From positions 145,705-209,704 of the forward strand of contig CAKOHK010000001.1 of NCBI GenBank assembly GCA_934085595.1: a stretch of 64,000 nt of DNA. Reading direction: 5' to 3'. Shown piece by piece: positions 14,563-64,000 of the stretch. Source of the DNA: an uncultured Bacilli bacterium. Lineage in GTDB: Bacteria; Bacillota_I; Bacilli_A; RF39; UBA660. The first letter of the stretch is position 1; the number at the start of each line of letters is the position of its first letter. The notes under the pieces are model-generated. The model saw nothing but the letters and a program-made list of their open reading frames with translations. It had not been told where the DNA came from and made no database searches. The translations under genes and the position numbers were made by a program.

Positions 14563-14587
14563 TTTAAAACCTCCCTTAAATATAAAA

Positions 14588-15709
14588 TTATTTACAAAGT
14601 ACTAACTTAGATGCTACTTCTTCACTTATTCCACTTTCAAACTCTTCTACTTTCTTATATGTTTCAATATCCATAGAAGAAACATTTTCATAATTAAGTT
14701 CACATAATATCTTTTCATAATATCCATATGTTGGAACTATACTCATATTATATTCTGCATAAGGAAAACTATTTCTAACTTCTTCTGTCACATTAATAAG
14801 ATCATCAACACTATTAGAATCTAAAGTGCCTATCTTTTTGGACTGTTCCATGCACTCTCTTCTATATATATTTATTTTTTCTTTATCAGGTTCGTAACTC
14901 AATAATGAAGTTATATTAGTTTTACCATTAATAAACTCAATTAATAGTTTCTCAAGTTCTGTACTTTCAAACTTACCAGAAGCATCCTTATAACGAGTAT
15001 CCATCTGCATAAGACGAAGTAAATAAACAAGACGATTCATATCAAAACATACTTTATTTTTATTAATATATTTTCCATCTTTTACCAAGAATGAATTATT
15101 ATCACATTTACATAGTTCCCTATATTTAGTATAATCTTTCAAACTTATTTCATCTATTTTTTCATAAGTTATTGTATTCATAATATCACTATAAAACCTA
15201 GTAATATCAGGAAGACTAGCTGCTTTTTCTCTTTGATTATATAGTTCTTTTAATATATATAGTCTAGTAAGTCTACCATTAAAATCATATTTAGATAAAC
15301 CACTATAAAGATTCTCTTTTCTCTTTTCTATTTCTTTATCTATTAAAGAAACCAAATCCACTTCCCCACTATAACTTTCAAGTTCATAAAGAGCATACAT
15401 CCTATCATACTCATCACAGTTACTTTTAGAAATTACATCATACTCTAATAATCTATTAGCAAGCTTATATAAATTAGAATAAAGAACTAATTCATAAGAT
15501 AACCCTTTTTCTCTACTAATACTATCTTCATCAAAATCTATATATGAAGTAAAATCTAAATCTTTATATGTAAGTGTTCCTTCTTCTACATCATGACTAT
15601 AATAAAAATTACCATCTTCTATCTTTAATATTAATTCTTTAAGTCTTTCTTCATCTATATCCACTTTATATTTATAAATCATTCCATCTTTTTCTTCAAT
15701 ATATATCAT
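14588..15709 (-). CDS. Tandem-array paralog 5 (373 aa)
   Basis: MIYIEEKDGMIYKYKVDIDEERLKEL ... ASKLVLCK. Confidence 0.6.
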   Translation of the reverse strand: MIYIEEKDGMIYKYKVDIDEERLKELILKIEDGNFYYSHDVEEGTLTYKDLDFTSYIDFDEDSISREKGLSYELVLYSNLYKLANRLLEYDVISKSNCDEYDRMYALYELESYSGEVDLVSLIDKEIEKRKENLYSGLSKYDFNGRLTRLYILKELYNQREKAASLPDITRFYSDIMNTITYEKIDEISLKDYTKYRELCKCDNNSFLVKDGKYINKNKVCFDMNRLVYLLRLMQMDTRYKDASGKFESTELEKLLIEFINGKTNITSLLSYEPDKEKINIYRRECMEQSKKIGTLDSNSVDDLINVTEEVRNSFPYAEYNMSIVPTYGYYEKILCELNYENVSSMDIETYKKVEEFESGISEEVASKLVLCK

Positions 15710-15735
15710 TTCAAAACCTCCTTTAAATACTTATA

Positions 15736-16902
15736 CTATTTACCAAGCACTAATTTAGATGCTGCTTCTTTATTTACTTCACTATCAAACTCTTGAGCTT
15801 TGTTATATATTTCACTATCTAGTGAAGGAATAAAAGTATATCTAAGTTCCTTAATTATTTCTTCATAATATGAATCAGTTGAATCTATGCTCATATTATA
15901 TTCAGCATATGGAAACTCATTTCTAAGTTTTTCCATTAGCTCAATCTCACCATCAATATTTTCTTCACTAAGTAAACCAATCTTTCTATAGCGTTCAGCA
16001 CATTTCTTTTTAAAAATATTTGCTTGTTCTTCTTCACTATTATAATTAATTAATGAAGAAATATCTCCTCCTTCATCAAGTATATTAACTAATATACGTT
16101 CTAAATTAGTTGGTACTAATCTTCCATCAAGAGCTTTAAATCTTGTATTATCTTCAATACTTTCTAATATATTTCTCATTCTCTCTTCATCAAATGAAAC
16201 TAAATATTTTCTAGCGTTTTCATTTTCAGTTTTACTAATAATTCTTGAGTTATAGTTAGATAAAACTAAATAAGCCATATAATCTTCTTTTAGAATCTCA
16301 TCTATTCTTTCAAAACTTATAGTGCTCATAACAGCATAAACAAATCTTCTAGCGTCCACAACGTCAGATGCCACTTTTCTTTGTTTATATAGCTCCTTTA
16401 TCTTATAAAGTTCTCCGCACTTTCCAGCATAATCAAACTTAGATGGTTCATTTCCGAGTAAACTTTCTCTTTCCTTAATTTCCTCATCTATTAAAGAAAC
16501 CAAATCCTTTTCACCATTATAATTTAAGAGTTCAAAAAGCCCAGAAGTCATTATATAATCTCTAATATCATCTTCATCACTAAATGGCTCCACGTAATAT
16601 TCTTCAATATCTTCAATATCTTCTTCCATACCAAGTAGTTTATTAACAATCTTATATAAATTTGAATAATAAACAAGTTCATATCTAGAACTAAATAAAC
16701 CGTCACTAAAAATCCAATTTATACTATCAAATCTTGTATAATCAAAATCTAATTCATCAAACTCTAACTTATCTTCATCTAGCGAATTAGAATATTTAAA
16801 GTTACACCCTTTCATCTCATTAAATATTTTTCTAAGTCTTTCTTCATCTATATCTACTTTATACTTATAAATCATTCCATCTTTTTCTTCTAAATATATC
16901 AT
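15736..16902 (-). CDS. Tandem-array paralog 6 (388 aa)
   Basis: MIYLEEKDGMIYKYKVDIDEERLRKI ... ASKLVLGK. GGAGG lies 12 nt after the stop of the upstream metallophosphoesterase gene. Confidence 0.6.
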   Translation of the reverse strand: MIYLEEKDGMIYKYKVDIDEERLRKIFNEMKGCNFKYSNSLDEDKLEFDELDFDYTRFDSINWIFSDGLFSSRYELVYYSNLYKIVNKLLGMEEDIEDIEEYYVEPFSDEDDIRDYIMTSGLFELLNYNGEKDLVSLIDEEIKERESLLGNEPSKFDYAGKCGELYKIKELYKQRKVASDVVDARRFVYAVMSTISFERIDEILKEDYMAYLVLSNYNSRIISKTENENARKYLVSFDEERMRNILESIEDNTRFKALDGRLVPTNLERILVNILDEGGDISSLINYNSEEEQANIFKKKCAERYRKIGLLSEENIDGEIELMEKLRNEFPYAEYNMSIDSTDSYYEEIIKELRYTFIPSLDSEIYNKAQEFDSEVNKEAASKLVLGK

Positions 16903-16914
16903 TTCAAAACCTCC

Positions 16915-18021
16915 CTATTTGATACCGTATCTTTTACTAAACTTATCTATCATAGATAAACTTCTACTATCTCCTACTTCTTCAATAATCTCTTCTTCTA
17001 TAACTTCTTGTGTTATTTCTTCACACACACTACTTTCTTCTTCTTTAAACTGTACATATCTTTTAAACTTATTTTCCGGACTACACACTATATGTGTCAT
17101 AATACTACTCTCTCCAAGAGATATAACCTTATGATCATTATTTAACCATAGTTCCTTTACATTTACAAGTGATATAGTATTATTTCCAGTATTAATAGTT
17201 ATATCTAAAAAACAAGGACACATTTCATTATTAATCATAATATCACTTAAAGTAGGAACTTTAATATATAAACTATTAGCGTGCTCTCTTATCTTAAATC
17301 TGTGTTCATGTCCACTAAGTACTATTCCACAAGCACTTTCTATATCAAGTTTAGTATTATTTTTATATGTTTTACCTAAGTCATGTCTCATAAATATATT
17401 AATCTTAGATAAAACAACTTTAGAAAGACCATACCCAGTAAACACCATATCATGCCTTCTAGAATTAATCATTTCCCCAATATCTATATTAAACTTCTCA
17501 TAAAAACTCATATCATGATTTCCACCAATCATAAAATTAATAATATTTTTATCAAACGGATATTTCTTAATCGTACTATCAATCATATCTATAGGATCAC
17601 TATAATTAACTTTATATATTGACGAAGGCATAAATCCTTCAAATATATCACCACTATTAAATATAATATTTATTCCATTCTTCTTAGCATAATCATATAC
17701 TATTTCCATATATCTATTATCTGAATATTTACTCTCTCTATGTTCATCACTAACAGCTATTATTCTATATATTCTATTAGTACTTTGCATAGGATTTCCA
17801 ACTATAAATATATCTTTATCTTCATTATTAAAAACACTTTTAATTCCATAAGTAATATTACCATTATCATGATAAAATCTATCTAAATTAATACCATAAC
17901 ATTTAAGTCTATTAAGTTTAATATATAACTGTTTATTACTAATTCCAAGTGTGCTAGCCATCTCATTAGCACTCTTCCCGTTTTTAATCATCTCTATTAT
18001 TTTAGCATTGTCTTCATCCAT
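16915..18021 (-). CDS. Helix-turn-helix N-terminal domain fused to a calcineurin-like metallophosphoesterase
   Basis: 368 aa. N-terminal GKSANEMASTLGISNKQLYIKLNRLK looks like an HTH. MPE motifs appear in canonical order: SDEH, GDIFEG, GGNHD, RHD, SGHEHR. Confidence 0.65.
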   Translation of the reverse strand: MDEDNAKIIEMIKNGKSANEMASTLGISNKQLYIKLNRLKCYGINLDRFYHDNGNITYGIKSVFNNEDKDIFIVGNPMQSTNRIYRIIAVSDEHRESKYSDNRYMEIVYDYAKKNGINIIFNSGDIFEGFMPSSIYKVNYSDPIDMIDSTIKKYPFDKNIINFMIGGNHDMSFYEKFNIDIGEMINSRRHDMVFTGYGLSKVVLSKINIFMRHDLGKTYKNNTKLDIESACGIVLSGHEHRFKIREHANSLYIKVPTLSDIMINNEMCPCFLDITINTGNNTISLVNVKELWLNNDHKVISLGESSIMTHIVCSPENKFKRYVQFKEEESSVCEEITQEVIEEEIIEEVGDSRSLSMIDKFSKRYGIK

Positions 18022-20300: not shown

Positions 20301-21818
20301 TTATTCTATAACAAATGGATTATCTTTACTTCCATCACCTGACATATATTGCACACTCGAAGATAAAAATAATACGGGTCTTATATTATTATCAGTGTTA
20401 GTAGGCAAATAACTAGTTAAAGATCCATCATTAACTATGTTCATTACATTAGCAGCACTACCAGAACGAGGCGAAATTGTCCAATAATAAGAAGAATTAG
20501 CTAACCAATTAGTACTTGTACAAGTAGAATTATTATATGAACTTCCTAAAGTAGATGTATTATAGCATCCGCTACTTGCATACATATAATCACTCGGATA
20601 TACAAGTCCAACTTCTCCATCCCATGTTTGTTTATTTCCACTTGGCACACTTGTACTTCTTTCTTGAGTATATACTTGTTTTGTATTTCCAAAACTCATT
20701 CCATTTAATACTATATTTCCAAGATACCATTTTGTACTGCTTATTTGATTTCTTGCTTCAGCCGTTAATCCATTACTTGCATATGTTCCAGTTCTATTGT
20801 AATAATTCCCACTATTTAATGTTGTCTTTAAAGATGCTGTTGTCCAATCATTTTTTGATGCAGAAAACGCCACTTTTCCTATTTGATTCCTAATTATTTT
20901 TACTTTATTTTCTTTAGTATATGTTCCATCTTCATTTGGTGTTTCCACTTCAAATACCCCAATTATTCTCCATCTCTCAATTTCATCATTAAATGTTATA
21001 TAATTATTTGGACTTTTACCTTGATATCTATATTCAGTTGAATTATATTTTTGATTACCTGTTGCAGTTTGGTCAATTTTGGTTAGCTTCAAAGTTTGAT
21101 AATTACTTACTAAATACGTCACCAAAGATTTACTTTCTTCAAAATATAAACTGCATTTAGTTTGTTTATTTGAACCTATAATTATTTTTTTATTTAAAGT
21201 ATCATATTCTACTGTAGCATCATTATTACAAGTATAACTCTTTAACTTATAATATTTATTTAAATCGAGTTCATTTACTCTCTCACTATCAACATATAAT
21301 GCTGTTGTTTCAAAATCATATTTCCAGTAGTCATCTAAAATTTCTGTATATGTATCAAGAACTTTAATTTCATCTACGTCGTTAAATGAATATCCCCCAA
21401 ATACCATAAGTGATAATGTTTGTTTTTCATTGCTTTCATTTTTAATTATAAGTGATATTGTTCTTTTAGTGAGTATTCCTCCAAATGCTGGTTCAAGATA
21501 ATCTGAAGCATATTTAACATCAATGTAATCGTTATTTAAATATGCAAGTTTATAGTTAGTAGAAACTGCATTTAAACTTGTTATTTCTATAGTATGTTCT
21601 GTTTCTCCTGGATCTATATCAATAGTATAAGTGTTTTCATCATCTATTTTTATAGAATACAAAAGTTCCGAAATATACATTTCATTACTTCTATAACTTT
21701 CACTGTTTATAGTAAACTTCGCATAACTAAATGCAAGTAACGGACAAAGTCCGATCAACACTAAAACTATAAAAATGTTTTTCTTTATATAATATATTAC
21801 ATTTTTTCTTATACTCAT
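20301..21818 (-). CDS. Secreted TasA/camelysin-like protein with the shared unrecognised C-terminal domain (family member P1)
   Basis: 505 aa. Signal peptide ends ...LLAFSYAKFTINSE (SipW-cognate-like). C-terminal 260 aa carry NYQTLKLTKIDQTATGNQKYNSTEYRYQG, WRIIGVFEVETP, NQISSTKWYLGN, YPSDYMYASSGCY and NIRPVLFL. Confidence 0.6.
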   Translation of the reverse strand: MSIRKNVIYYIKKNIFIVLVLIGLCPLLAFSYAKFTINSESYRSNEMYISELLYSIKIDDENTYTIDIDPGETEHTIEITSLNAVSTNYKLAYLNNDYIDVKYASDYLEPAFGGILTKRTISLIIKNESNEKQTLSLMVFGGYSFNDVDEIKVLDTYTEILDDYWKYDFETTALYVDSERVNELDLNKYYKLKSYTCNNDATVEYDTLNKKIIIGSNKQTKCSLYFEESKSLVTYLVSNYQTLKLTKIDQTATGNQKYNSTEYRYQGKSPNNYITFNDEIERWRIIGVFEVETPNEDGTYTKENKVKIIRNQIGKVAFSASKNDWTTASLKTTLNSGNYYNRTGTYASNGLTAEARNQISSTKWYLGNIVLNGMSFGNTKQVYTQERSTSVPSGNKQTWDGEVGLVYPSDYMYASSGCYNTSTLGSSYNNSTCTSTNWLANSSYYWTISPRSGSAANVMNIVNDGSLTSYLPTNTDNNIRPVLFLSSSVQYMSGDGSKDNPFVIE

Positions 21819-33967: not shown

Positions 33968-35257
33968 CTAATGGCTAGTAGGCACAATTTTATCTTTACC
34001 ACCCATATAAGGTCTTAATACTTCTGGTACAGTAATACTTCCATCTTCATTATAATTATTTTCAATAACAGCAATTAACCCTCTAGGACTAGCAACAACA
34101 GTATTATTTAGAGTATGTACAAAATAAGTACCATCTTCACCCTTAGTTCTAATACCAAGTCTACGAGCTTGAGCATCACCAAGAGTACTACAGCTACCAA
34201 CTTCAAAATACTTTTGTTGTCTTGGACTCCAAGCCTCTATATCACAAGATTTAACTTTCAAATCAGCAAGATCACCACTACAGCACTCAAGTTGTCTAAC
34301 TGGAACATTAAGATTTCTAAATATTTCTACTGTATATCTCCACATTTTTTCATAAAAATCCATAGACTCACTAGGTTTACATAAAACTATCATTTCTTGT
34401 TTTTCAAATTGATGAACTCTATAAAGTCCTCTTTCTTCAAGTCCATGACTTCCACCCTCTTTTCTAAAACAAGGACTATAAGAAGTCATAGTAATTGGAA
34501 GTTCACTTTCATTAATTATTCTATCTTTAAATCTACCAATCATAGAATGTTCACTTGTACCAATTAAATATAAATCTTCATTTTCTATTTTATACATCAT
34601 AGCTTCCATTTCAGGAAAACTCATAACACCTTCAACTACACTTGCATGAATCATAAAAGGTGGAATAGCAAATGTAAATCCTTTATCAATCATATAATCA
34701 CGAGCATAAGCAAGCATTGCTTCATGAAGTCTAGCAGCATCTCCAAGTAAATAATAAAAACCTTGACCACTAGTTTTACCAGCACTATCTTTATCAAGTC
34801 CATTTATAGATTCAAGTATATCAGCATGATAAGGTATAGTATAAGAAGGAACAGTTGCTTCTCCAAATCTTTGAACCTCAACATTCTCACTATCATCTTT
34901 TCCGATAGGTACACTCTCATCTATTATATTAGGAATAACCATCATTTTTTCTCTAATTAATTTTTCAAGTTCAACTTCCCTATTACCGCATTCTTCAATT
35001 TCACGAGATATCTCTTGAACTCTCTTTTTAGCTTCTTCTATCTTATCAGTTTCTTTGTTTTTAACATACTCTCCTATAGAAGCACTAACTTTATTTTTTT
35101 CACTTCTTAAATTATCAGCCTTAAACTTAGCAAGTCTATATTCTTCATCAAGATTATACACTTCATCCACAATAGGAAGTTTTTCATCTTGGAACTTTTT
35201 CTTAATATTTTCTTTAACTAAATCTCTATTTTCTCTTATTAATTTAATATCTATCAT
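33968..35257 (-). CDS. serS: Serine--tRNA ligase
   Basis: 429 aa with an N-terminal coiled coil. Class II motifs: YSPCFRKEGGSHGLEERGLYRVHQFEKQE. Confidence 0.85.
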   Translation of the reverse strand: MIDIKLIRENRDLVKENIKKKFQDEKLPIVDEVYNLDEEYRLAKFKADNLRSEKNKVSASIGEYVKNKETDKIEEAKKRVQEISREIEECGNREVELEKLIREKMMVIPNIIDESVPIGKDDSENVEVQRFGEATVPSYTIPYHADILESINGLDKDSAGKTSGQGFYYLLGDAARLHEAMLAYARDYMIDKGFTFAIPPFMIHASVVEGVMSFPEMEAMMYKIENEDLYLIGTSEHSMIGRFKDRIINESELPITMTSYSPCFRKEGGSHGLEERGLYRVHQFEKQEMIVLCKPSESMDFYEKMWRYTVEIFRNLNVPVRQLECCSGDLADLKVKSCDIEAWSPRQQKYFEVGSCSTLGDAQARRLGIRTKGEDGTYFVHTLNNTVVASPRGLIAVIENNYNEDGSITVPEVLRPYMGGKDKIVPTSH

Positions 35258-35357: not shown

Positions 35358-37553
35358 TTACATAACAGGTCCTGAATCTTCAAGATTTGCATTATTATTC
35401 ATATTCATCTCATTCATATGAGTTTGCATTAAATATTGAATCATTTGTTTACTATAATCGCCTTTTTTTCGTTCTTTAGAATAATACATATCATAATATC
35501 CTAAAACATCACTTTCACTTACTCCCATCTTCTGTGAAACATCACTTAAATATTCTTGTATCTTACTATTATCAGGCATCTTTTTCTTTTTTTCCATTAA
35601 CAACTTACAAAAACTAGATTTTTCTTTAGCCTCTAAAGGAAATGTTCTAATCGCTTCAGGATTCCTCTGAAACAAATCAGTTATTTGACTATACATATAA
35701 TCTGATGTATTAAATCCACCAATCATCATATTATCAACAACATTATTAAGAGGTGAATAATCATAATACTCTGAAGGTATATCAAAATTATCAGGAGAAA
35801 AACTAGTACTCCTCTTCATCACTTCAGCATTACCAGCTATAGATTGCATCGCCATAAGATCACCTACTAACTTATTACCCTCAAAGTTAATATCACCCGC
35901 ATAATCCTTATCCCTAACAGCATCTTGATAATGTTCAATCTCCGTTATTATTTGAGCTTTAATAGTTTTTAAAGCACCTTCATCATAACTACTAATATCT
36001 ACTCCATTAAGCATCTGTGCAAACACACTATCAACATCAAAATCATAACTATCAGATTTATCCAAAAGATATTTCAAAAACTGAGCTTGATGTGCATACT
36101 TACCACCAGCTTCTTTAGAAAAATCTAAATTAAGACTCTTTAACATAGATATATTAAGTGATGAAATATAACTATCTTCTTTACTCCTATTAATCAAATC
36201 TAAAATATCATCACTACCCTTTGCATATTTACCACTCACATTAGCAGTATAAGCAAGTAAATAGCCTAAATACTTACTCTTTAATTCATCATAATCAGCA
36301 TTAATACTATCTTCAATCGGAGGAATATTTACTTTAGTTTCAGCTTTAGGTAAAACTATACCCTTTTCTTCATCTGTTAAAGTACGACTAAGTATTTCTT
36401 CACTACTACTTGTTAAAAATAAATCTGTATTATATGCTTTAAGAAAACTATCAGAAGGACTTCCAAGTCTTTTAACATTAACAAAATCATATTCAGACTG
36501 TAAAGTCTTTGCCATAACTGCGATTTCATCTAATTTACTATAAAATAATTCTTCGTTTTTAGCTATATCAACAAGCATAGGATATCTTCCAATGATACTT
36601 GATATAGGATGAAAAGAAACAGTCTCATCAAAAGAAGATATTTTATTTTCACGTACACTTTCAATTGCTCCCATTATTGCTCTAACGCCATATCCCATGT
36701 CAAAGAAATCATATTTTCCACTAGCCTCAACTTCATGAACATGATTTTCAAACGACGCTTTAGCAAGGCTAGGATCAATTCCTTTCATATTATAAGCTTT
36801 ATAAGCAGCAATAGATTCAAATCTATCAAGTTGGCTAGCCGTAGGCACAACAAGTCTATCCATATCCGCAAATACCATTACTTGACTACGTCCAAACTTA
36901 TCTAAAACAGCAGCATAATCCATATCTTTTCCAATAGTAGTACTTACATTTTCTTTACCGTAAACTTTTTCAGTTATTGCTTTTACCATATCTTCCATTT
37001 TTTTAGGATAAACATTAACCACAATAGGTGCTTTAACTGTATTTACTCCATACTTATTTACCTGCATCTCACCAGCCTCATATATCGCATGATGTAAGCA
37101 ATATAAGTTCCACTTTTCATTTGACTTCTGTGCTACCTCCATCTCATCTTCTCTATTCTTGCACACATCACTAGAAAATATAGGAAGTCCTTCTTTTTTC
37201 TTATATTCAACAGTTTCAAGAGTATGATTCGCTTTTACATATCTAGATTCAACTTCATCTTCCTTAACCCCATACATAAAATCAACAAATGGACTTATAT
37301 AAACAGATCTACGTAATGCATCATTTATAGAATATTCTGTAAGTGAATCACTAGTATCATAACCAGTCATAGCGTACAAAGAAGGTATGCTTCCTTCTAA
37401 AGCCTCTTTACTCTTATCATACCCAGTCCATATCCTATAATAATTAGGATCAATACGCACACTCGTCATAAAGTTTGGATAATCACGCATATTTTTATCA
37501 AAATAATAAAGATTACTAGGTATCTCACCATAATTTACTACAAAATCAGCCAT
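35358..37553 (-). CDS. Large (731 aa) cytoplasmic hypothetical protein with no recognisable domain
   Basis: No signal peptide. Acidic. Ends in an Asn/Met-rich tail. Immediately upstream of serS. Confidence 0.4.
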   Translation of the reverse strand: MADFVVNYGEIPSNLYYFDKNMRDYPNFMTSVRIDPNYYRIWTGYDKSKEALEGSIPSLYAMTGYDTSDSLTEYSINDALRRSVYISPFVDFMYGVKEDEVESRYVKANHTLETVEYKKKEGLPIFSSDVCKNREDEMEVAQKSNEKWNLYCLHHAIYEAGEMQVNKYGVNTVKAPIVVNVYPKKMEDMVKAITEKVYGKENVSTTIGKDMDYAAVLDKFGRSQVMVFADMDRLVVPTASQLDRFESIAAYKAYNMKGIDPSLAKASFENHVHEVEASGKYDFFDMGYGVRAIMGAIESVRENKISSFDETVSFHPISSIIGRYPMLVDIAKNEELFYSKLDEIAVMAKTLQSEYDFVNVKRLGSPSDSFLKAYNTDLFLTSSSEEILSRTLTDEEKGIVLPKAETKVNIPPIEDSINADYDELKSKYLGYLLAYTANVSGKYAKGSDDILDLINRSKEDSYISSLNISMLKSLNLDFSKEAGGKYAHQAQFLKYLLDKSDSYDFDVDSVFAQMLNGVDISSYDEGALKTIKAQIITEIEHYQDAVRDKDYAGDINFEGNKLVGDLMAMQSIAGNAEVMKRSTSFSPDNFDIPSEYYDYSPLNNVVDNMMIGGFNTSDYMYSQITDLFQRNPEAIRTFPLEAKEKSSFCKLLMEKKKKMPDNSKIQEYLSDVSQKMGVSESDVLGYYDMYYSKERKKGDYSKQMIQYLMQTHMNEMNMNNNANLEDSGPVM

Positions 37554-37642: not shown

Positions 37643-38158
37643 TTATTTTATACTATTAAGCCCTCTAGCATACTCTTCTAACATCTTACATTTTCTTTCT
37701 ATCTCATTAACAACATCTTTTATACTTCTATGATTACCATCTCTATCATAATAATCAATCACAGATTCAATAGTACTCCTCTTTTCATCTTCACCATCAT
37801 CTATCCTATAATAAAAACCATCAGGTAAGTTATCAAACTTATATTCTCTTTCAAATAATATGTATAAAAGAGTATTTTCAATTTCTTCAAAGCAATCAAA
37901 ACCATCTTCCCTTATTCTTTTAATAAGTATTTTATTATTATTTTGATATTCTTTCAATTTATCAATACTAACATTCAAACTCTCACGAAACTCTATTTTA
38001 TAATGTCCTGAACAACTAGCAAATGTCTTATATCCTTTTTTATTAAATAATGAAACTGCATTAGCTATAGCTTTATCACAAATAAACACATCTTTATTGT
38101 CTTCAGCATGAAACCACACTTCAAAAGTATTTCTATCAATCAAACTATTTTTATCCAT
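37643..38158 (-). CDS. Hypothetical protein
   Basis: 171 aa. Confidence 0.35.
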   Translation of the reverse strand: MDKNSLIDRNTFEVWFHAEDNKDVFICDKAIANAVSLFNKKGYKTFASCSGHYKIEFRESLNVSIDKLKEYQNNNKILIKRIREDGFDCFEEIENTLLYILFEREYKFDNLPDGFYYRIDDGEDEKRSTIESVIDYYDRDGNHRSIKDVVNEIERKCKMLEEYARGLNSIK

Positions 38159-38233: not shown

Positions 38234-39046
38234 TCATTCTTTAACTATCTTATAACTTTCATAAATATACTTTAAACTATCTTTAACATATATAGTCTTC
38301 TCTACTTCACTACCAGACAAAACCATTTTAGGTGGTATAGAAATCAATATCTTAAATAAAAGTTCTTCTTCTTTAAGTAATTCAAAATTATTTTTATATG
38401 TTTTAAATAGTATATCAAAATTAAGTTTATATCCATCACTTTTATAATATTTATATAAATCTAAAACGGGAGTATCGACCAAATGTTTTTCCCAACTAAT
38501 TAAATAATTTTTATCCCCTCTAATAAAATGTTCTTTTTTAATATTATTATGAACTATACATACTCTCTCAGTAGTTTTATCTTTTACAATATTCATCCAT
38601 TTCTTAATATTTTCTTCAGCATACTTTAAACTACCAAGAATAGTACTATAATTTCTAGCAAGTAAATAATGTGATGGACTCATATAAACTTCACCCTCTA
38701 TACTATCCATAAGATTCTCATAGTAATCTTTTAAATAAAGAATATTACCCTCTATTTTCTCTTTAACCTCTTTATGTTTATTACTACTTATATCTTTATA
38801 AAATACAGTTTTACTATGAAGTTTAGCCATAGTTTCTATTATAGATGTCCCACTAGCTACTTCCCTATACTTTTCGCTCTTAATATATTTACTCCTAACA
38901 CTATCATCAAGAACCTCTATAACAGAAGGAAAATTATCAAACCCACTCAAAAGTAAATAATCATATAGCTCAAGTACCTCATCATTTCTTTTCTTAACAA
39001 CACTATCCCCATCTATAACCACACTATTTTTATATTTCTTACTCAT
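38234..39046 (-). CDS. CotS/YsxE-family (kinase-like) spore coat protein
   Basis: 270 aa. CIVHNNIKKEHFI...YLISWEK...DTPVLDL is the CotS/YutH-type catalytic-loop and DFG-like region. Downstream of the SpoVID-like gene, as spoVID-ysxE in Bacillus. Confidence 0.5.
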   Translation of the reverse strand: MSKKYKNSVVIDGDSVVKKRNDEVLELYDYLLLSGFDNFPSVIEVLDDSVRSKYIKSEKYREVASGTSIIETMAKLHSKTVFYKDISSNKHKEVKEKIEGNILYLKDYYENLMDSIEGEVYMSPSHYLLARNYSTILGSLKYAEENIKKWMNIVKDKTTERVCIVHNNIKKEHFIRGDKNYLISWEKHLVDTPVLDLYKYYKSDGYKLNFDILFKTYKNNFELLKEEELLFKILISIPPKMVLSGSEVEKTIYVKDSLKYIYESYKIVKE

Positions 39047-41120: not shown

Positions 41121-41602
41121 AACAATACTCCCCTTATAAATCCAAATATAAGTCCAAAAATAACACCATATAATATAATACTTCCAGTAAGTTTAAACAT
41201 ATTACCGCCTATTCCCTTAACAAATCCTTCATTTCTATAATCCATACTACTACTTGTCATAGAATTAGCAAATCCAGTACTAGGTACTATAAGTCCACTC
41301 TTAGTAAAAGATAATACTTTATCAAAAAAACCAAGTCCTGTTAAAAGAGAACCAACTAAAACAAATGTAATAAAAACAAGTAAAAATGAATCACTAGAAT
41401 TAATGCTAAGTGTTCTAATATAGTAGTTATACAAATACTCTCCTATAAGTCCCATAATACCTCCACTTATAAAAGCAATAAAAACATTTTTAAATGTACT
41501 TTCTTTCTTAACAATACTACTAACTAATTTATCATATTCTTCATTATTCATATTAATATTGTGCTCTTTATATTTAAGTTCATACATAAAAAATAGTGCC
41601 AT
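41117..41602 (-). CDS. spoVAC: Stage V sporulation protein AC
   Basis: 161-aa polytopic membrane protein. First gene of the tricistron. Confidence 0.65.
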   Translation of the reverse strand: MALFFMYELKYKEHNINMNNEEYDKLVSSIVKKESTFKNVFIAFISGGIMGLIGEYLYNYYIRTLSINSSDSFLLVFITFVLVGSLLTGLGFFDKVLSFTKSGLIVPSTGFANSMTSSSMDYRNEGFVKGIGGNMFKLTGSIILYGVIFGLIFGFIRGVLL

Positions 41603-41629
41603 TTTTAGACACTATATTATTCTAGTAAA

Positions 41630-43630
41630 CTATTTTATTTCAAATGCAAAGCACGAACTTCCATTACCTGTAATATATGTTACATTAGATTTAAGATATA
41701 ATGTAGGCTGAAAGCCAGGAAAAGCACTATTTGTATCTTGAGGCTGAACTTCGCCATTAGCTGACACAGCTATTGAATTATGGAATATATTAAAGAAAGT
41801 AGGCATAGGTGAAATAGTTAAATTATGAGAATTAACATATAACCAATTTGTATTCCTACAAATACTAGCTCTATAATCTGTATTACAAGTATTTAAATTT
41901 GAACTACATGATGAATTATTATAATCACACGCTTTTTTTGTACTATCATTATAGCAACTACTACTTGCATACATATAATCACTTATGTATATTAACCCTA
42001 CTTTTCCATCCCAAGTTTGACTATTTCCACTATCTACACTTGCGCCTCTCTCTTGGATATATACTTCTGGTGCTGTTTTAAGAAGTCCACCATTTGATGC
42101 ATTATAATCTATGTTACCTATATACCATTTTGTACTACTTATCTGATTTCTTGCACTGTTTGTTAATCCATTATTAGCATATGTACCAGTTCTATTAAAA
42201 TATTCTCCACTATTTAAAGTTCTCATTAATGACGATTTTGTCCAATTGTTTGTACCTGCAGAATCCCAAGCAGCAGCTCCAATTTGATTTCTCACTATTT
42301 TCACTCTATACTGTTTTGTATAGCCATTACCATTAGGAGTTAATACTTCAAAGACTCCAATAATTCTCCACACACCATTATCCATATTTATTCCGGTTGT
42401 CCACATTCCTGTTTCTCCATTAAATATAATATAATTGTTAGGATTTGCCCCTTGATATCTATATTCTGTAGTAGCATAATTTTGATTACCTGTTGCTGCA
42501 TGTGATATTTTAGTTAAACCTAAAGTTTGATAATTACTTATAAGACAATTTGCTAAAGTTTTACCAGAGCATAAAGATTCAATAGGATTATTCCATCTAG
42601 CAGTTAAAACAGTATTTTTAGTTGCTATAGTATTGCTTGTTACTAGATTTCCACTTTCATCATACCATCCGCCAAAATTATATCCGCACTTGCTTGTACT
42701 ACACAATGTTCCATATGTTTCACCTTGCATAACATTCTTTTTTGAGCATTCACTTCCACCATTAGTATCATATACAAGAGTATACATTTTCAAACTCCAC
42801 TTAGCATAAAGAGTAATATCGTTTTTTACTATATCAGTACTTTCAATTTTAGTTTCATATGTTTTACTAGTATACCATCCATCAAAAGTATAATTGTCTT
42901 TACTAGGAGTACATAAATCGCCATAAGCTTGCCCTTTTTGGATACTATCACTCGCGCATCCTCTACCACCATTATTATCAAAAGTTATCTTTTTCATATC
43001 TTTTTCAAATGATACATAACAGTCCATATCATCACTAACAGATAATAATGTTAAAGTATTATTATCATTTAACATACCACATGTATTAGAAGAATACTTA
43101 TATCCAAGAGATGGAATATATTCAAAACTAACTCTATCTAAATATCCAGCATACACTTTATTTTTATTAACTTTTCCCATACTTTCATCTGTACTAAATA
43201 AACTAACTATATACATATTTGTAAATCTCCATGGATCTTTATATGTACCTTTACCTGTAATTTTAGTTCCTTTTTTTACATATTCAGTAACTCTTATATT
43301 ACTATCATCACTATTACTATTATCAGATATCTTTTTACCACTAATCTCCCAGTATGAAAAAGATGCTGTAAGATAACTTAAATTATTTATTTTTGATGTA
43401 TTAACTTCATAATTATTTATAAGTCCTCCAGTAATAAACTTATTATCATAACTTATATTTTTATTATTATATATAAATGGAACTCTATCTTCTTTTATTA
43501 AATATATTTCATTCTTAACATTATTATTTATATAATTATTAGAAACACTTATAGTATCATTAAAAGAATATGCTTTTACATTTATTATCGTAAATAAAAC
43601 TAATAAAGCACTTATAATTATCTTCTTCAT
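41630..43630 (-). CDS. Secreted protein with two Listeria-Bacteroides (Flg_new) repeats and the shared C-terminal domain (family member P2)
   Basis: 666 aa. Signal peptide ...INVKAYSFNDT (TasA-like AxFND). Two ...YTFDGWY...LYAKW / YNFGGWY...LTARW repeats. C-terminal domain carries LTKISHAATGNQNYATTEYRYQG, WRIIGVFEVLTP, NQISSTKWYIGN and YISDYMYASSSCY. Confidence 0.6.
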   Translation of the reverse strand: MKKIIISALLVLFTIINVKAYSFNDTISVSNNYINNNVKNEIYLIKEDRVPFIYNNKNISYDNKFITGGLINNYEVNTSKINNLSYLTASFSYWEISGKKISDNSNSDDSNIRVTEYVKKGTKITGKGTYKDPWRFTNMYIVSLFSTDESMGKVNKNKVYAGYLDRVSFEYIPSLGYKYSSNTCGMLNDNNTLTLLSVSDDMDCYVSFEKDMKKITFDNNGGRGCASDSIQKGQAYGDLCTPSKDNYTFDGWYTSKTYETKIESTDIVKNDITLYAKWSLKMYTLVYDTNGGSECSKKNVMQGETYGTLCSTSKCGYNFGGWYDESGNLVTSNTIATKNTVLTARWNNPIESLCSGKTLANCLISNYQTLGLTKISHAATGNQNYATTEYRYQGANPNNYIIFNGETGMWTTGINMDNGVWRIIGVFEVLTPNGNGYTKQYRVKIVRNQIGAAAWDSAGTNNWTKSSLMRTLNSGEYFNRTGTYANNGLTNSARNQISSTKWYIGNIDYNASNGGLLKTAPEVYIQERGASVDSGNSQTWDGKVGLIYISDYMYASSSCYNDSTKKACDYNNSSCSSNLNTCNTDYRASICRNTNWLYVNSHNLTISPMPTFFNIFHNSIAVSANGEVQPQDTNSAFPGFQPTLYLKSNVTYITGNGSSCFAFEIK

Positions 43631-45116: not shown

Positions 45117-45198
45117 TCCTCTAATAAATTATAGCATATCAATTATATTTTTAGTAGTATTTTATATTTAAAATTAAAAGTAGTACTTAGTACTACAA

Positions 45199-46680
45199 TT
45201 ATTTAATTATAAATGGATTAGTGCTTTTTCCGTTTCCAGAAACAAATTTTACATCAGCATTAAGATACACAGTAGGTCTTATATTGACATCACTAGCAGA
45301 ATCTACACCATTAATATATAAAGTACCTTCACTCTGTGCAATAAGTACAGCGTGTTGGTCTATAGATTCAGGTGACAACAACCAATAAACGGTATTATTC
45401 ATCAGCCAATTAGTACTAACGCACTCATCATCTTTATAATTTCCAGAGTCTGCCCCATCATAACATACATTACTAGCATACATATAATCACTAGGATATA
45501 AAAGTCCTACTTTGCCATCCCATGTTTGACTATTTCCATCCCATACATCAGTACTTCTTTCGCGTGTATATATGCTTTCTGCTGTTCCATAACCACCAGA
45601 AGAATAAACCTGATTACCAAGGTACCATTTCGTAGTACTTATTTGACTTCTAGCTTCATCAGTTAATCCAGTAGTTGTATAATCGCACAAAGGATTAGTA
45701 TCATCATATGGATGAAAATATATTGAACACCCAAGAGGAGAATATCCATATTGTCTATTAAAATATGCTCCTTCATTTAACAAAGTCATAAGTGATGCTT
45801 TTGTCCAATCATTAACAGAGCCAGAAGCAGAACTAAAATCCCAAGCTGCTTGTCCAATAGAATCTCTAACTATTTTAACTTTGTTTTCCTTTTTATAAGT
45901 TCCATCACTCTGAGGTGTTTCTACTTCAAATAATCCAACTATTCTCCACAGTCCCTCTTCTTTATTAAATGTAATATAATTGCTAGGATCTTTCCCTTGA
46001 AATCTGTATTCAGTAGTACTATATTCCTGATTTCCTGTAGCTTCATGCGTTATAGATATTAAATCAAGTTTTTTATAATTATCTATTAAAGTTTGAGCAA
46101 GTGTAGCTGTTTGAATACTTTCTGCGACACCAAGAACACCATAAAACTTCTTTCCTTGATTATAGTTTTGCGCTTTATCAGTATAATTAACAAAACGAAT
46201 TGAAACAGTGTAAGTATGAGTTTCTCCAGGTAATATTTTTTGTGATTCTTTATATGGATACAACACTTCACCCTTATTAGCTATAGCCTCAGTAGTAACT
46301 TGTGGCACAATAACTGTAGAACCATTAACACAGCTTCCATTATCAACACCACTACTACCACAAACGCATCTAATCATAAGTTCATCTTTTTGAATCCCAT
46401 TATAAAGCTTCTGCCATCCAAGACTATAATAAGTTTCTTCATTTCCTTTGTTTTCAACAGTTATAGTTTTCGTAGTTGTCCATCCAGGCTCTATATTTTC
46501 TGCAATTATTTGATTACCATCAGTATATTTAAGTTCAAGCTTAGTAGTACCAACATCTATAGTTTCAGCCACATCATTACCACTAACAGTCTGACTAAAA
46601 TACGCATAAGTAAGCCCAACCGTTAATAAAAATGCAACTGTAAGTACACTTCCATAAATAAACTTTTTATCTTTCATCAT
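45199..46680 (-). CDS. Secreted TasA/camelysin-like protein with the shared C-terminal domain (family member P3)
   Basis: 493 aa. Signal peptide ...VGLTYAYFSQT (AYFSD-type SipW-cognate motif), then TTKLELKY...NIEPGW...ITVENKG as in TasA. C-terminal domain carries ITHEATGNQEYSTTEYRFQG, WRIVGLFEVETP, SQISTTKWYLGN and YPSDYMYASNVCY. Confidence 0.65.
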   Translation of the reverse strand: MMKDKKFIYGSVLTVAFLLTVGLTYAYFSQTVSGNDVAETIDVGTTKLELKYTDGNQIIAENIEPGWTTTKTITVENKGNEETYYSLGWQKLYNGIQKDELMIRCVCGSSGVDNGSCVNGSTVIVPQVTTEAIANKGEVLYPYKESQKILPGETHTYTVSIRFVNYTDKAQNYNQGKKFYGVLGVAESIQTATLAQTLIDNYKKLDLISITHEATGNQEYSTTEYRFQGKDPSNYITFNKEEGLWRIVGLFEVETPQSDGTYKKENKVKIVRDSIGQAAWDFSSASGSVNDWTKASLMTLLNEGAYFNRQYGYSPLGCSIYFHPYDDTNPLCDYTTTGLTDEARSQISTTKWYLGNQVYSSGGYGTAESIYTRERSTDVWDGNSQTWDGKVGLLYPSDYMYASNVCYDGADSGNYKDDECVSTNWLMNNTVYWLLSPESIDQHAVLIAQSEGTLYINGVDSASDVNIRPTVYLNADVKFVSGNGKSTNPFIIK

Positions 46681-46797
46681 CCACCTCTATTCTCTATAAG
46701 CATTATACTCTTTTATAAGCGTTCAAGTCAATACAGTTTTTGGCAAATTGCATTTTATTATTTAAATAAGTTTATATAATAGGATTTTCAAAAAAAC

Positions 46798-47615: not shown

Positions 47616-49361
47616 TTATTCTAATATAGCTTTAATTCTTCTAACCCCAGCACTACTAGCTTCCTCTTTAACTATTTTAAAATGCCCAAGTTCACTTGTA
47701 TTCTTAACATGAGGACCACCACATAATTCTTTTGAAACATCACCAATAGAATATACAGTTACCATATCAGGATACTTCTCAATAAACATACACTCAGCCC
47801 CACTATTAATCGCATCTTTCTTACTCATCTCTTCTACTTTTACATCAAGACCTTCTTTAATCCATTCATTAACTAAATCCTCAGTCTTTTGCTTCTCTTC
47901 ATCACTAAGTTTATGATCACAAGAAAAATCAAATCTCATTCTCTCTTCAGTAATATTACTTCCCTTTTGATGTACATCTTTATTTACTACAACTTTTAAA
48001 GCAGCATTTAATAAATGAGTCGCAGTATGATATTTAGTTTCCTTTTCACCATTACCACCAAGACCACCTTTAAACTGTCCACTACTAGCAGTTCTACTAA
48101 GTTCCTGATGAGCCTTATACTTTTCCTTAAAACCATCTTCATCAACTTTAATACCTTTTTCTAAAGCAAGTTCTATAGTAAGTTCAATAGGAAATCCATA
48201 AGTATCATATAATCTAAATGCACTACTAGCATCTATATCTTTTCCATCTTTAACTGTTTTTTCAAACTCTCTAAGTCCTTTTTCTAATGTTTTATTAAAC
48301 TTCTCTTTTTCATTCTTTAAAACTTCTAAAACAACATTTTTATTTTCTTTAAGTTCACTATAATATTTTTCATATTTACTAATTATTAAAGATGCTACTT
48401 TGCTTTCCCAATCACTATTTATATCTATATTTAATTTCTTAGCATGTCTTATGCTTCTTCTTATAAGTCTTCTAAGTATATACCCTTGTCCTACATTACT
48501 AGGTTTAATTCCTGCTGGATCTGCACTTATAAATACACTAGTTCTAATATGATCTGCTATTATACGCATACTTTTTTCATTACCTTCATATGGCAAAGAA
48601 GTAATTTCACATATTAAATCAATAACATCTTTCCATATACTAGATGCATAATTATCATTTACCCCTTCAAGTACACTTGTAACCCTTTCAAGACCCATAC
48701 CCGTGTCTACATTCTTATGTGCAAGTGGAACTATGCTACCATCTTCCTTATGTTCATACTGCATAAACACATCATTCCATATCTCAACCCATCTATTATC
48801 TTCAGGATCAAATACTTCTGGTACTTCTTCATCACTTCTGAAATAAAACATTTCTGTATCAGGCCCACATAACCCTACCATCTCAAGATTAGGCCACCAG
48901 TTATCCTCTTTAGTCCTAGCTATTCTCTCTTCCTTAATACCTAAACTTTTCCAAAGTTCAATAGCCTCAGTATCCTCATCAGCTATTTCATTCCCAGCAA
49001 ATACAGTAACCGCAAGTTTTTCCACTGGTATATTAAGTACTTTAGTTAAAAACTCAAAACTCCACTCAATAGCTTCCTTCTTAAAATAATCACCAAGACT
49101 CCAGTTACCAAGCATTTCAAAGAAAGTATGATGATATGAATCCCCTACTTCATCTAAATCATTAGTTCTAATACACTTTTGATAATCACAAAGTCTTTTC
49201 CCATAAGGATGCTCTTTCCCACTTAAATATGGTACTAATGGCTGCATACCAGCTGTATTAAAAAGAACAGTATTATCATTCTCTGGTACAACCGGAGCAC
49301 TAGGTATTTGCTTATGTCCCTTACTAACAAAAAAATCAATAAATAAATCTCTTACATTCAT
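47616..49361 (-). CDS. alaS: Alanine--tRNA ligase, unusually short form (581 aa) with aminoacylation and editing motifs but no C-Ala domain
   Basis: N-terminal FNTAGMQP, HHTFFEMLGNWSLGDYFK and WPNLEMVGLCGPDTEMFYF. Editing-domain HTATHLL (HxxxH) and CGGPH. Preceded by a T-box with a GCU specifier. Confidence 0.75.
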   Translation of the reverse strand: MNVRDLFIDFFVSKGHKQIPSAPVVPENDNTVLFNTAGMQPLVPYLSGKEHPYGKRLCDYQKCIRTNDLDEVGDSYHHTFFEMLGNWSLGDYFKKEAIEWSFEFLTKVLNIPVEKLAVTVFAGNEIADEDTEAIELWKSLGIKEERIARTKEDNWWPNLEMVGLCGPDTEMFYFRSDEEVPEVFDPEDNRWVEIWNDVFMQYEHKEDGSIVPLAHKNVDTGMGLERVTSVLEGVNDNYASSIWKDVIDLICEITSLPYEGNEKSMRIIADHIRTSVFISADPAGIKPSNVGQGYILRRLIRRSIRHAKKLNIDINSDWESKVASLIISKYEKYYSELKENKNVVLEVLKNEKEKFNKTLEKGLREFEKTVKDGKDIDASSAFRLYDTYGFPIELTIELALEKGIKVDEDGFKEKYKAHQELSRTASSGQFKGGLGGNGEKETKYHTATHLLNAALKVVVNKDVHQKGSNITEERMRFDFSCDHKLSDEEKQKTEDLVNEWIKEGLDVKVEEMSKKDAINSGAECMFIEKYPDMVTVYSIGDVSKELCGGPHVKNTSELGHFKIVKEEASSAGVRRIKAILE

Positions 49362-55503: not shown

Positions 55504-56490
55504 TCAACTTTTTATAAATTTTCGTAAAGCTGATAATTTATTCTTTGTATCAGAATATATAATCTTATTATAAATACTAATGGAAATCTTATTTCTAAAC
55601 TCCTCAATAATTTTTTCATAATCATTTACAAATTTATTAATTTCAGTTTTAGTAATTCCATACTTTTTTAATAAAACTGAAATAATAAGAACATAATCAG
55701 TAATTGTATTAAAATCTATTCCAGTACAACATATTTCATTTTCTAGATATTTAGATAATTTAGTATCAATTTGCCCGTCTTTAAATCTCACATCAAAAAC
55801 TACATCATTATGTGCAATTGAATTTCTTAATGATTTAATTAAATACATAATCTTTTCAGGAAATTTAGCATTAGTATCAAATGCAATATTTATATTCATT
55901 TCTTTATCAATTTTATTTCTAACTTTAAATTCTAAACTTTTAATTAAATCCGCAAACGTTCCTAATGTAATTATTTCAAATATACCCCAAATTGGAACAT
56001 ATCTATCTTTTGAATAAAAATGACTAACAATTTTATTTTCATTATTATAACTTCTAGATAAAGAAGAATAAATACTATTTTGTACTGATAATCTTTGCTT
56101 CATTTTCTTTTTATATTCTTCGCTAGTATTACTATTTCTATAATCAGTCATACCATTTTCATAAATAACATTAAATTCATCAGTTTTATACTCTTCAACT
56201 AACATTTGAAGTACAATATTTTTTGAAATCGTTTCTATTTGCATTATTTGTGGATATAATAAACTTTTTAACTTAGAGTCAAAATCAACTATTGAAACTA
56301 TTTCATCAAAACTAGATAAATTTATTCTATTTTGTGTATTATTAATGTATCTATAACCCTTATAACCATGATAATAACCTATATTTCTTAAACTCTTTTT
56401 ATCTTTAGTACCTCCAATAGAAATATTATGCTTTTTTCTTAAATATATCATTAAAGCATTTGTTGTTCTAACTTTCATTTTTATATTCAC
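55504..56490 (-). CDS. Abi_2 (AbiD/AbiF-like) abortive-infection family protein
   Basis: 328 aa. N-terminal LRNIGYYHGYKGYRYI matches the Abi_2 NIGYYRLSGY signature. Confidence 0.6.
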   Translation of the reverse strand: MNIKMKVRTTNALMIYLRKKHNISIGGTKDKKSLRNIGYYHGYKGYRYINNTQNRINLSSFDEIVSIVDFDSKLKSLLYPQIMQIETISKNIVLQMLVEEYKTDEFNVIYENGMTDYRNSNTSEEYKKKMKQRLSVQNSIYSSLSRSYNNENKIVSHFYSKDRYVPIWGIFEIITLGTFADLIKSLEFKVRNKIDKEMNINIAFDTNAKFPEKIMYLIKSLRNSIAHNDVVFDVRFKDGQIDTKLSKYLENEICCTGIDFNTITDYVLIISVLLKKYGITKTEINKFVNDYEKIIEEFRNKISISIYNKIIYSDTKNKLSALRKFIKS

Positions 56491-62478: not shown

Positions 62479-64000
62479 TTACTTAATTATAAACGGACTA
62501 TTACTGCTTCCATTACCTGAAACATAAGATGTATTTGCATCAAGGTATACTGACGGACGTACATCAACATTTGAAAGAGTAACTTCATCAGAGCCTAAAT
62601 TACCACTACTACCAACATACATAACACGAATCATACCAGAAGTTGGTGATATATTCCAAAACCAATTACTAGATGAATACATCCAGTCAGTATTTATGCA
62701 AGTTTCATTTCTATAATCATAGCTTGAACCACTATAACTAAATCCATACATTGTATCATTATTATAGCATCCACTACTTGCATACATATAATCACTTGGA
62801 TACACAAGTCCTACTTTTCCATCCCACGTTTGATTATTTCCACTCCACACACTTGTACTTCTTTCTTGAGCATACAACGCTTTTGTATTTCCATAGCCAA
62901 CACTATTTGTCCAAATCGCATTACCTAAATACCACTTTGTACTACTTATTTGATTTTTAGCTTCATTTGTTAAACCATTACTTGCGTATGTAGCAGTTTT
63001 ATTATAATAATCTCCACTATTTAGTACTCCCATTAATGATGTAATTGCCCAGTTATTATAATTGGATCCTGTTTTTGATGTATTCCACGCTTGTGTACCT
63101 ATGGAATCTCTTATTAACTTCACTTTATACTCTTTTGCGTATCCACTACTACTAGGTGTTTCTACTTCAAACACACCAACAATTCTCCACACTCCAGTTT
63201 CACCATTAAATGTTATATAGTTATTTGGGCTTTTTCCTTGATATCTATATTCAGTTGTTGCATAATTTTGATTTCCTGTTGCTGATTGTGATATTTTAGT
63301 TAGTCCTAAAGTACCATAACTTAGCATCAAATAATCACTAAACTTATTATATTCTTCAAAATACAAACTACATTTAGTTTGTTTAAAAGTATTTATAGTC
63401 AAATCATTAGTTTTCGCATCATATTTCACAGTTGCATTATTTGTACAAGTATAATTAACAAGATTATATTTTTTATTACTATCAAGTTCATCCACTCTAG
63501 TATTATCTACATAAAAAGCAGTTGTCTCATAGTCATAATGTAAATAGTTTGTATCTATTTCTGTGTATGTATCAAGTACTTTCACTTCCTCTACATCATT
63601 AAATAAATATCCTCCAAAGACCATAAGTGATAATGTTTGTTTTCTGTTACTTTTATTTTTAATCGTAAGTGATATTGTTCTTTTAGTAAGTATTCCACCT
63701 AGTGATGGTTCTAAATAATCACCCGCATATCTGATTTCTAAGTTGGTGTTATTTAAATATGCTAATTTATAATTTGATGATATTGCATTTAAACTAGTTA
63801 TCTCTACTGTATGTTCCATTTCACCAGGTTCCATCTCTATTGAATACACATTATTTCCATCTATTTTTATAGAATATAAAAGCTCTGAAATATACATTTC
63901 ATTACTTCTATAACTTTCACTATTTATAGTAAACTTAGCATAACTTAGTGCTAGTACTGGACATAAACTTATCAACACTAAAACTATAAAAATGTTTTTC
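62479..64000 (-). CDS. Secreted TasA/camelysin-like protein with the shared C-terminal domain (family member P4). Its 5' end runs off the window
   Basis: ...KNIFIVLVLISLCPVLALSYAKFTINSESYRS... N-terminus is about 70% identical to P1. C-terminal domain carries LTKISQSATGNQNYATTEYRYQG, WRIVGVFEVETP, NQISSTKWYLGN and YPSDYMYASSGCY. The true start lies beyond 64000. Confidence 0.6.
   Translation of the reverse strand, partial: KNIFIVLVLISLCPVLALSYAKFTINSESYRSNEMYISELLYSIKIDGNNVYSIEMEPGEMEHTVEITSLNAISSNYKLAYLNNTNLEIRYAGDYLEPSLGGILTKRTISLTIKNKSNRKQTLSLMVFGGYLFNDVEEVKVLDTYTEIDTNYLHYDYETTAFYVDNTRVDELDSNKKYNLVNYTCTNNATVKYDAKTNDLTINTFKQTKCSLYFEEYNKFSDYLMLSYGTLGLTKISQSATGNQNYATTEYRYQGKSPNNYITFNGETGVWRIVGVFEVETPSSSGYAKEYKVKLIRDSIGTQAWNTSKTGSNYNNWAITSLMGVLNSGDYYNKTATYASNGLTNEAKNQISSTKWYLGNAIWTNSVGYGNTKALYAQERSTSVWSGNNQTWDGKVGLVYPSDYMYASSGCYNNDTMYGFSYSGSSYDYRNETCINTDWMYSSSNWFWNISPTSGMIRVMYVGSSGNLGSDEVTLSNVDVRPSVYLDANTSYVSGNGSSNSPFIIK

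Follow-up and report, generated by a model that had tools for sequence, protein, structure and literature searches.

The gene P2 lies in a stretch of 64,000 nucleotides (nt) of DNA from an uncultured Bacilli bacterium (contig CAKOHK010000001.1; the whole stretch is referred to here as the window), and encodes a 666-residue protein that its signal peptide marks as secreted. The host has a GC content of about 27%, is represented in human-gut metagenome assemblies, and is a spore-former, since spoVA genes are present. From the N- to the C-terminus, P2 consists of a signal peptide, two orphan modules termed N1 and N2, two Flg_new repeats, and a C-terminal domain of about 320 residues, hereafter the head (Table 1). 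Within one species, the head is exchanged at this locus while the preceding part of the protein, the stalk, is retained. Structural models place the head, as a divergent member, in the DUF6273 superfamily.

P2 is located 27 nt upstream of spoVAC, spoVAD and spoVAEB, and shares their strand. Its open reading frame (ORF) is preceded by an AGAGG ribosome-binding site and, further upstream, by a TGnTATAAT-like -10 element, and is followed by a terminator-like hairpin. The exact protein is found in public assemblies (NCBI and ENA), where it belongs to a cluster of three sequences. Three distinct P2-type sequences keep the frame of 666 codons unbroken, and the copy on contig L083 is identical at 659 of the 666 residues.

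Table 1. Coordinates of P2, its modules and the other head-bearing genes of the window (aa, amino-acid residues).
Feature	Position	Strand	Extent	Remarks
P2 gene	41630..43630	(-)	666 aa + stop	ATG start; stop at 41630..41632; intact; from the ORF list
Signal peptide	43571..43630	(-)	aa 1-20	MKKIIISALLVLFTIINVKA; read from sequence; cleavage predicted before YSFNDT
Orphan module N1	43217..43570	(-)	aa 21-138	Ends in GKGTYKDPWRF; no Pfam match
Orphan module N2	43001..43216	(-)	aa 139-210	No Pfam match
Flg_new (Listeria-Bacteroides) repeat 1	42794..43000	(-)	aa 211-279	Best PF09479 stretch, aa 214-277
Flg_new repeat 2	42584..42790	(-)	aa 281-349	Second PF09479 stretch; weak PF18998 match, aa 289-347
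C-terminal head	41633..42595	(-)	aa 346-666	Predicted divergent DUF6273-type, C-type-lectin-like domain, ~320 aa
Segment differing between alleles	41597..42592	(-)		Head cassette + 33 nt past the stop codon; blastn
Type A paralogue	45199..46680	(-)	493 aa	TasA/BsaA-like N-module (by profile) + head; tblastn 42% identity, E 1e-69
Type B paralogue	20301..21818	(-)	505 aa	Second N-module + head; tblastn 51% identity, E 1e-82
Type B paralogue	62479..64000	(-)		N-terminus cut by the window end; tblastn match 62479..63978, 50%, E 1e-87

Module structure of P2

The middle region of P2 matches the Flg_new profile of Pfam (PF09479; E 8.7e-26, 90.3 bits against a cut-off of 27) and TIGR02543 of NCBIfam (E 8.4e-15, 54.9 bits against a cut-off of 20.95), each over two stretches. 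The Listeria-Bacteroides repeats that a first-pass annotation had read from the letters alone are thus borne out, as is their number: two units of about 70 residues with the signatures YTFDGWY...LYAKW and YNFGGWY...LTARW, which align with each other (BLOSUM62 local score 128). A tblastn search with this region returns a self-match at E 1e-10. The first repeat weakly matches a solved B-repeat of InlB (2y5p; E 0.028).

Cleavage of the signal peptide is predicted before YSFNDT, and the junction motif A/Y[ST]F[ND] (a slash marks the cleavage position here and below) is kept in the homologues P0299, P0121 and P0122. All four head-bearing proteins of the window start with a basic segment and continue with a hydrophobic one, and to this extent they have the same class of signal peptide, as had been annotated; the P2 junction (MKKIIISALLVLFTIINVKA/YSFNDT), however, gives no significant alignment with the ...SYA[YK]F[ST] junction of the other three. 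N2 is common to P2, to the alleles carrying Gly_rich_2 that are described below, and to P0123 and P0124. A word-index search of 5.8 billion proteins with N1-N2 returned four matches only, and missed P0299. The end of N1 (YWEISG...NIRVTEYV...GKGTYKDPWRF) was considered as a decayed version of the head's tail; hhalign pairs these very segments, but not significantly (E 0.02, Prob 2%), and the idea was dropped.

Head exchange between alleles at the P2 locus

Strains of the species were gathered by a look-up of the ribosomal protein S4 encoded in the window; the metagenome assemblies that they come from have sample names suggestive of human-gut cohorts. Among strains with an identical S4 protein, three different genes are found between murB and spoVAC. 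One encodes 563 aa with a single Flg_new repeat and a Gly_rich_2 domain (PF21722), another 713 aa with three repeats and Gly_rich_2, and the third is the 666-aa P2, with two repeats and the head, which is also present on L083. The flanks of the locus are 97-99% identical in DNA, whereas the variable segment has no counterpart (blastn of the window against L001, L082 and L090).

The signal peptide, N1, N2 and repeats of P2 share about 89-92% DNA identity with the 563-aa and 713-aa alleles, which possess a glycine-rich domain where P2 has the DUF6273-like head. DNA homology with the 563-aa allele stops at 42796, the end of repeat 1 (aa 279), and that with the 713-aa allele at 42593, the end of repeat 2 (aa ~347). 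Homology with the Gly_rich_2 alleles resumes at 41596, 34 nt past the P2 stop codon. Because homology breaks at the repeat ends and resumes after the stop, the P2 locus keeps a constant stalk and exchanges its C-terminal head, with junctions at repeat and domain boundaries. In L001, the gene at this locus is split into ORFs of 103, 306 and 63 aa (L001 4528..6170), owing either to a frameshift in a Gly_rich_2 allele or to misassembly.

Relatives, fold and carriers of the head

A tblastn search with the head of P2 (aa 346-666) detects three more copies in the window, all on the minus strand and 42-51% identical, in agreement with the annotated sharing of one C-terminal domain by four proteins. 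Two N-terminal types are seen among the 120 database proteins most closely related to the head. Type A proteins begin with MKDKK...TYAYFSLTVSGNDVAETINV, as at 45199..46680, and type B proteins with M.IRKN...LALSYAKFTINSESYRSNEMY, as at 20301..21818 and 62479..64000. The ORF at 62479, listed with a GTG start at 63978, is really open to position 64000, and its true N-terminus (M.IRKN...KKNIF) lies beyond the window. The two types align with each other at the signal peptide only.

All three paralogues had been annotated as bearing a TasA-like region. The type A protein matches PF12389 (Peptidase_M73, TasA/camelysin; E 1.9e-6, 28.3 bits against 22.5) over aa 15-80 only, scores 25 bits with TIGR04090 (BsaA family), below the cut-off of 60, and has the junction ...TYA/YFS. 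Its N-module aligns over 161 columns with a broad set of SipW-type N-modules that precede the head in other taxa (hhalign Prob 98.7%, E 3e-16). The type B genes match no Pfam or NCBIfam profile, and their N-module reaches a Prob of 59% against the same set. Judged from these profiles, the TasA-like label is justified for one of the three paralogues, 45199..46680, and is no more than suggested for the type B pair, which stays below any profile threshold. The three genes sit among unrelated housekeeping genes, and no sipW, signal-peptidase or pilus genes occur among the scanned neighbours of the four head-bearing genes. The type A gene is missing from strain contig L001 (window 45174..46785 against L001 2964..2987, with flanks 98% identical), while 10 further contigs of the species have it, so that this head-bearing gene is polymorphic for presence or absence.

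P2 itself matches neither PF12389 nor TIGR04090. Its first 210 residues, N1-N2, yield an hhalign Prob below 5% against TasA-type N-modules and show no kinship with the N-modules of either type A or type B. An exhaustive search uncovered P0299, a protein of 577 aa encoded at a different locus in another assembly, which displays the full P2 architecture with one repeat. Its N1 and head are 61% and 57% identical to those of P2, and the linkers of the two proteins are alike (ESICTGKTLANCL and ESLCSGKTLANCL). Since P0299 has the same architecture, P2 is a member of a rare but established subfamily (signal peptide, N1, N2, Flg_new, head) rather than a TasA-type protein whose middle was replaced, as the first-pass annotation had proposed. 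An initial view of P2 as a unique chimera was withdrawn when P0299 was found.

The head of P2 has no NCBIfam match, and no PDB entry is matched in sequence by either the P2 query or a family profile. Its relationship to DUF6273 was found through intermediates and a shared fold. The family profile of the head matches 5725 proteins, many of which also carry PF19789 (DUF6273) and PF07963 (the prepilin N-methylation motif). In P0131, for example, N_methyl covers aa 3-27 and DUF6273 aa 302-463, above the gathering score. AlphaFold2 modelling of the head from a 139-sequence alignment gave a predicted local distance difference test score (pLDDT) of 91.6 and a predicted template modelling score of 0.92; with an 18-sequence alignment, the pLDDT was only 41. 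The core contains polar residues that are invariant across the 139 sequences. P2 has an 11-residue insertion (MWTTGINMDNG, aa 405-415, ~42386..42418) after FNGETG that is not found in the three paralogues or in P0299, and model confidence dips there.

A Foldseek search of the PDB with the head model retrieved a sole match, 9qa6, at 14-18% identity, which is the N-terminal domain of the immunoglobulin A (IgA) protease of Thomasclavelia ramosa (ThomasA). Among viral models, the matches are mostly gut-phage proteins labelled "DUF6273 domain-containing". The DUF6273 domain of phage receptor-binding proteins has been called C-type-lectin-like (PMC10743442). Because of these carrier and profile links, the fold matches to 9qa6 and the phage models, and the published descriptions of DUF6273, the head of P2 is placed, on the strength of its model, as a divergent member of the DUF6273 superfamily and a putatively lectin-like extracellular module. 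At about 320 aa it exceeds the 172-position Pfam model, and thus includes an extra N-terminal subdomain. It is C-terminal in P2, in contrast to the sortase-anchored protease ThomasA, where DUF6273 is N-terminal; the domain also occurs in phage receptor-binding proteins.

The N-termini of the family are varied. Of the best 120 profile matches, at least 37 begin with the prepilin sequence GFTLIE, and many others have a SipW-type junction. In P0127, a TasA-like signal region and a single Flg_new repeat precede the head, P0162 joins an Ig-like surface domain to the head, and the order Flg_new then head recurs in P0299, P0296 and P0408. Across thousands of homologues, the head thus appears, from sequence comparison, on at least four kinds of N-terminal carrier: prepilins, TasA/BsaA-like modules with SipW-type signal peptides, the doubtfully TasA-like type B module, and Flg_new stalks. 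Some metagenome-assembled genomes (MAGs) have very large sets of head-family paralogues; CAYYLF01 alone supplies more than 25 of the 79 loci (L003-L081) in the scan of genome contigs. The label "Muribaculaceae" of this deposit is doubtful, because the other matches belong to MAGs filed as Bacilli, Tenericutes, Mycoplasma sp. or Clostridium sp.

Pairwise identities across 81 type A and 41 type B sequences put the N-module ahead of the head in conservation: the medians are 89% against 72% in type A and 78% against 62% in type B, and the N-module has the higher value in 98-99% of the pairs. A comparison of the two parts, of the kind called for in the annotation, therefore goes against a C-terminal domain conserved in sequence. 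The last ~70 residues of the head are the least conserved. Because the N-module is the more conserved part in types A and B, the head is constant as a fold, not as a sequence. The earlier description of the C-terminal domain as the constant element on different stalks thus agrees with the discrete, confidently modelled fold and the varied carriers, but not with the P2 locus, where the stalk is kept and the head is swapped.

Interpretation and alternative explanations

We favour, at a probability of about 0.6, a reading in which P2 is an exported modular protein with a displayed binding head, and in which recombination swaps the head between alleles. P2 would be a Sec-exported extracellular chain of its five kinds of element, from signal peptide to head, and the Flg_new repeats would act as a spacer or stalk that holds out the lectin-like head. 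The head, in which the core is conserved and the C-terminal tail variable, would be a portable display module; in gut Bacilli, this domain makes up the C-terminal part of type IV pilin-like, TasA/BsaA-like and Flg_new proteins. Ligand binding is plausible from the lectin-like fold of the model, and the ligand would most likely be a glycan or protein on the host, in mucus or on other microbes. P2 is one of at least three alleles at the locus between murB and spoVAC of a single species, among which recombination at the ends of the Flg_new repeats has replaced one head by another (DUF6273-like or Gly_rich_2) and altered how many repeats there are (1, 2 or 3).

Several observations weigh against this reading. 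In Pfam, the head of P2 has no PF19789 match up to E 10 and reaches no threshold; the three paralogues have no PF19789 match either. Residues 31-322 of ThomasA (9qa6) correspond to DUF6273, and this N-terminal domain is dispensable for IgA cleavage, with catalysis unaffected and no known role (PMC12402451). In its tail, P2 has FQPTLYL where the family consensus reads [VI]RPxxYL, and FAFEIK where it reads NPFIIK; relaxed constraint could be the cause. Retention on the cell is in question as well: the sequence of P2 has no visible LPXTG, cell-wall-binding or membrane anchor, and no sortase-type end (LPXTG-type motif, hydrophobic stretch, basic tail) was found, the terminus ...GNGSSCFAFEIK being the end of the head domain. 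The allele is also rare, being present in 5 contigs against about 126 among the murB cluster members listed.

The head could instead be an assembly or docking module through which P2 and the type A and B proteins bind each other or a common fibre (TasA-like or type IV pilus), with P2 an accessory subunit decorating that fibre. Such a role would suit a domain that sits on two kinds of fibre-forming N-termini, is encoded four times within 64 kb and has invariant polar residues in its core; in Clostridium perfringens, moreover, proteins of the BsaA type have links with both SipW and type IV pilus genes (PMC11580942). We nevertheless consider it unlikely. The grafted C-terminal modules of modular pilins are adhesins and not assembly elements (PMC8179133); co-assembly with a bacterial fibre is hard to reconcile with a head borne by a sortase-anchored protease and by phage receptor-binding proteins, and no sipW or pilus gene adjoins any of the four genes. 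Quite improbable, too, is that P2 is a recent recombinant by-product, a functionless chimeric allele drifting to loss at a locus that is a hotspot of junk surface-protein genes. This would account for the rarity of the allele, its aberrant tail, the split of the locus into three ORFs in one strain and the variable presence of the neighbouring type A gene. It fits poorly with a reading frame preserved in three distinct sequences, including the L083 copy, with a junction exactly at a domain boundary and with the high model confidence of the head, and the independent homologue of the same architecture at another locus, 57-61% identical, argues for long-term maintenance.

Association of the head-bearing proteins with the spore surface or with sporulation appears very unlikely. 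TasA was first found as a spore-associated protein, and the close spacing of P2 to the spoVA genes on a common strand points in this direction. The other three paralogues, however, lie among unrelated housekeeping genes, P2 has its own promoter-like element and terminator-like hairpin, and MAGs filed under "Tenericutes" or "Mycoplasma sp.", groups not known to sporulate, contain distant members of the family. The variability of the tail raises the question of whether the head is the target scaffold of a diversity-generating retroelement (DGR), whose mutagenic retrohoming would produce the variable tail, as in the DUF6273 proteins that are DGR targets. For the window this explanation is largely refuted and can scarcely be credited: the 64 kb contain no DGR, with neither an ORF with reverse-transcriptase motifs nor a template-like repeat of any tail, and the tails of same-locus orthologues are 90-100% identical across strains, which is not hypervariation. 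For these reasons, the variation of the tail is attributed to divergence between paralogues.

The arrangement of a displayed head resembles that of the modular type IV pilins of Streptococcus sanguinis, which carry grafted adhesin or lectin modules (PMC8179133, PMC9934059). PilB and PilC follow the same principle, in that a fibre-forming module bears a functional one at its C-terminus. Among the homologues of the head, many are themselves type IV pilin-like (PF07963 N_methyl, GFTLIE), whereas P2 lacks the prepilin motif and the window lacks pilus machinery genes; the motif G/FTLxE was found at the N-terminus of neither P2 nor its three window paralogues. The grafted modules of the S. sanguinis pilins are reportedly a von Willebrand A-like module and a lectin fold different from DUF6273. 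The SipW signal peptidase that processes the fibre proteins of the TasA/camelysin/BsaA group (PF12389, TIGR04090) is usually encoded in the same operon. Likeness to this group lies in the junction, the remote profile match and the N-module alignment of 45199..46680, and P2 has no such module. TasA and BsaA are single-domain fibre subunits, not known to bear a C-terminal head of 300 aa. Among proteins combining Flg_new (InlB B-repeat) with Gly_rich_2, the 563-aa and 713-aa alleles share the signal peptide, N1, N2 and repeats of P2.

A broader proposal would see in a single DUF6273-type head a universal plug-in adhesin, fitted to two unrelated kinds of fibre (type IV pili and TasA/BsaA-type donor-strand fibres) and to free Flg_new stalks, such that strains of one human-gut species change surface specificity by head-swapping recombination at repeat joints, and TasA-type modular fibre subunits parallel the modular pilins. 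This proposal is possible but doubtful. The literature searched contains no description of DUF6273 on TasA-like or pilin-like carriers, nor of a TasA-type counterpart of modular pilins. The carrier combinations and the head swap within a species are new, although the shuffling of surface-protein domains is itself familiar.

Other genes of the window were recorded alongside P2. Three tandem paralogous ORFs on the minus strand at 13366..16902 (398, 373 and 388 aa) all start with M[KI]YIEEKDGM[LI]YKYKVDIDEERL; the one that was scanned has no Pfam match, and they adjoin an ORF at 16915..18021 matching calcineurin-like phosphoesterases (Metallophos). A protein of 328 aa with an Abi_2 (abortive-infection-like) domain (E 3.6e-31) is encoded at 55504..56490 (-). 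The L001 orthologue of the 581-aa product of 47616..49361 (-) carries tRNA-synt_2c and tRNA_SAD domains, and this length is short for a full alanyl-tRNA synthetase. Consecutive minus-strand ORFs at 35358..37553, 37643..38158 and 38234..39046 (731, 171 and 270 aa) have no Pfam match, and lie between the spoVA/LysM genes and 33968..35257 (429 aa), which corresponds to a seryl-tRNA synthetase of L001.

The DUF6273 family is large and has no known function; it is distributed over gut bacteria, their phages and an IgA protease. A domain of this type is carried by pilin-like, TasA-like and repeat-stalk proteins, and within one human-gut species the head behaves as a cassette that is traded for a glycine-rich domain. 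Domain shuffling is commonplace among bacterial surface proteins, and the case of P2 points to no new mechanism. The findings suggest that fibre subunits of the TasA/BsaA type may be modular in the manner of type IV pilins. For the DUF6273 family, they provide a testable hypothesis, that of a displayed binding head, together with natural allele pairs with which to test it.

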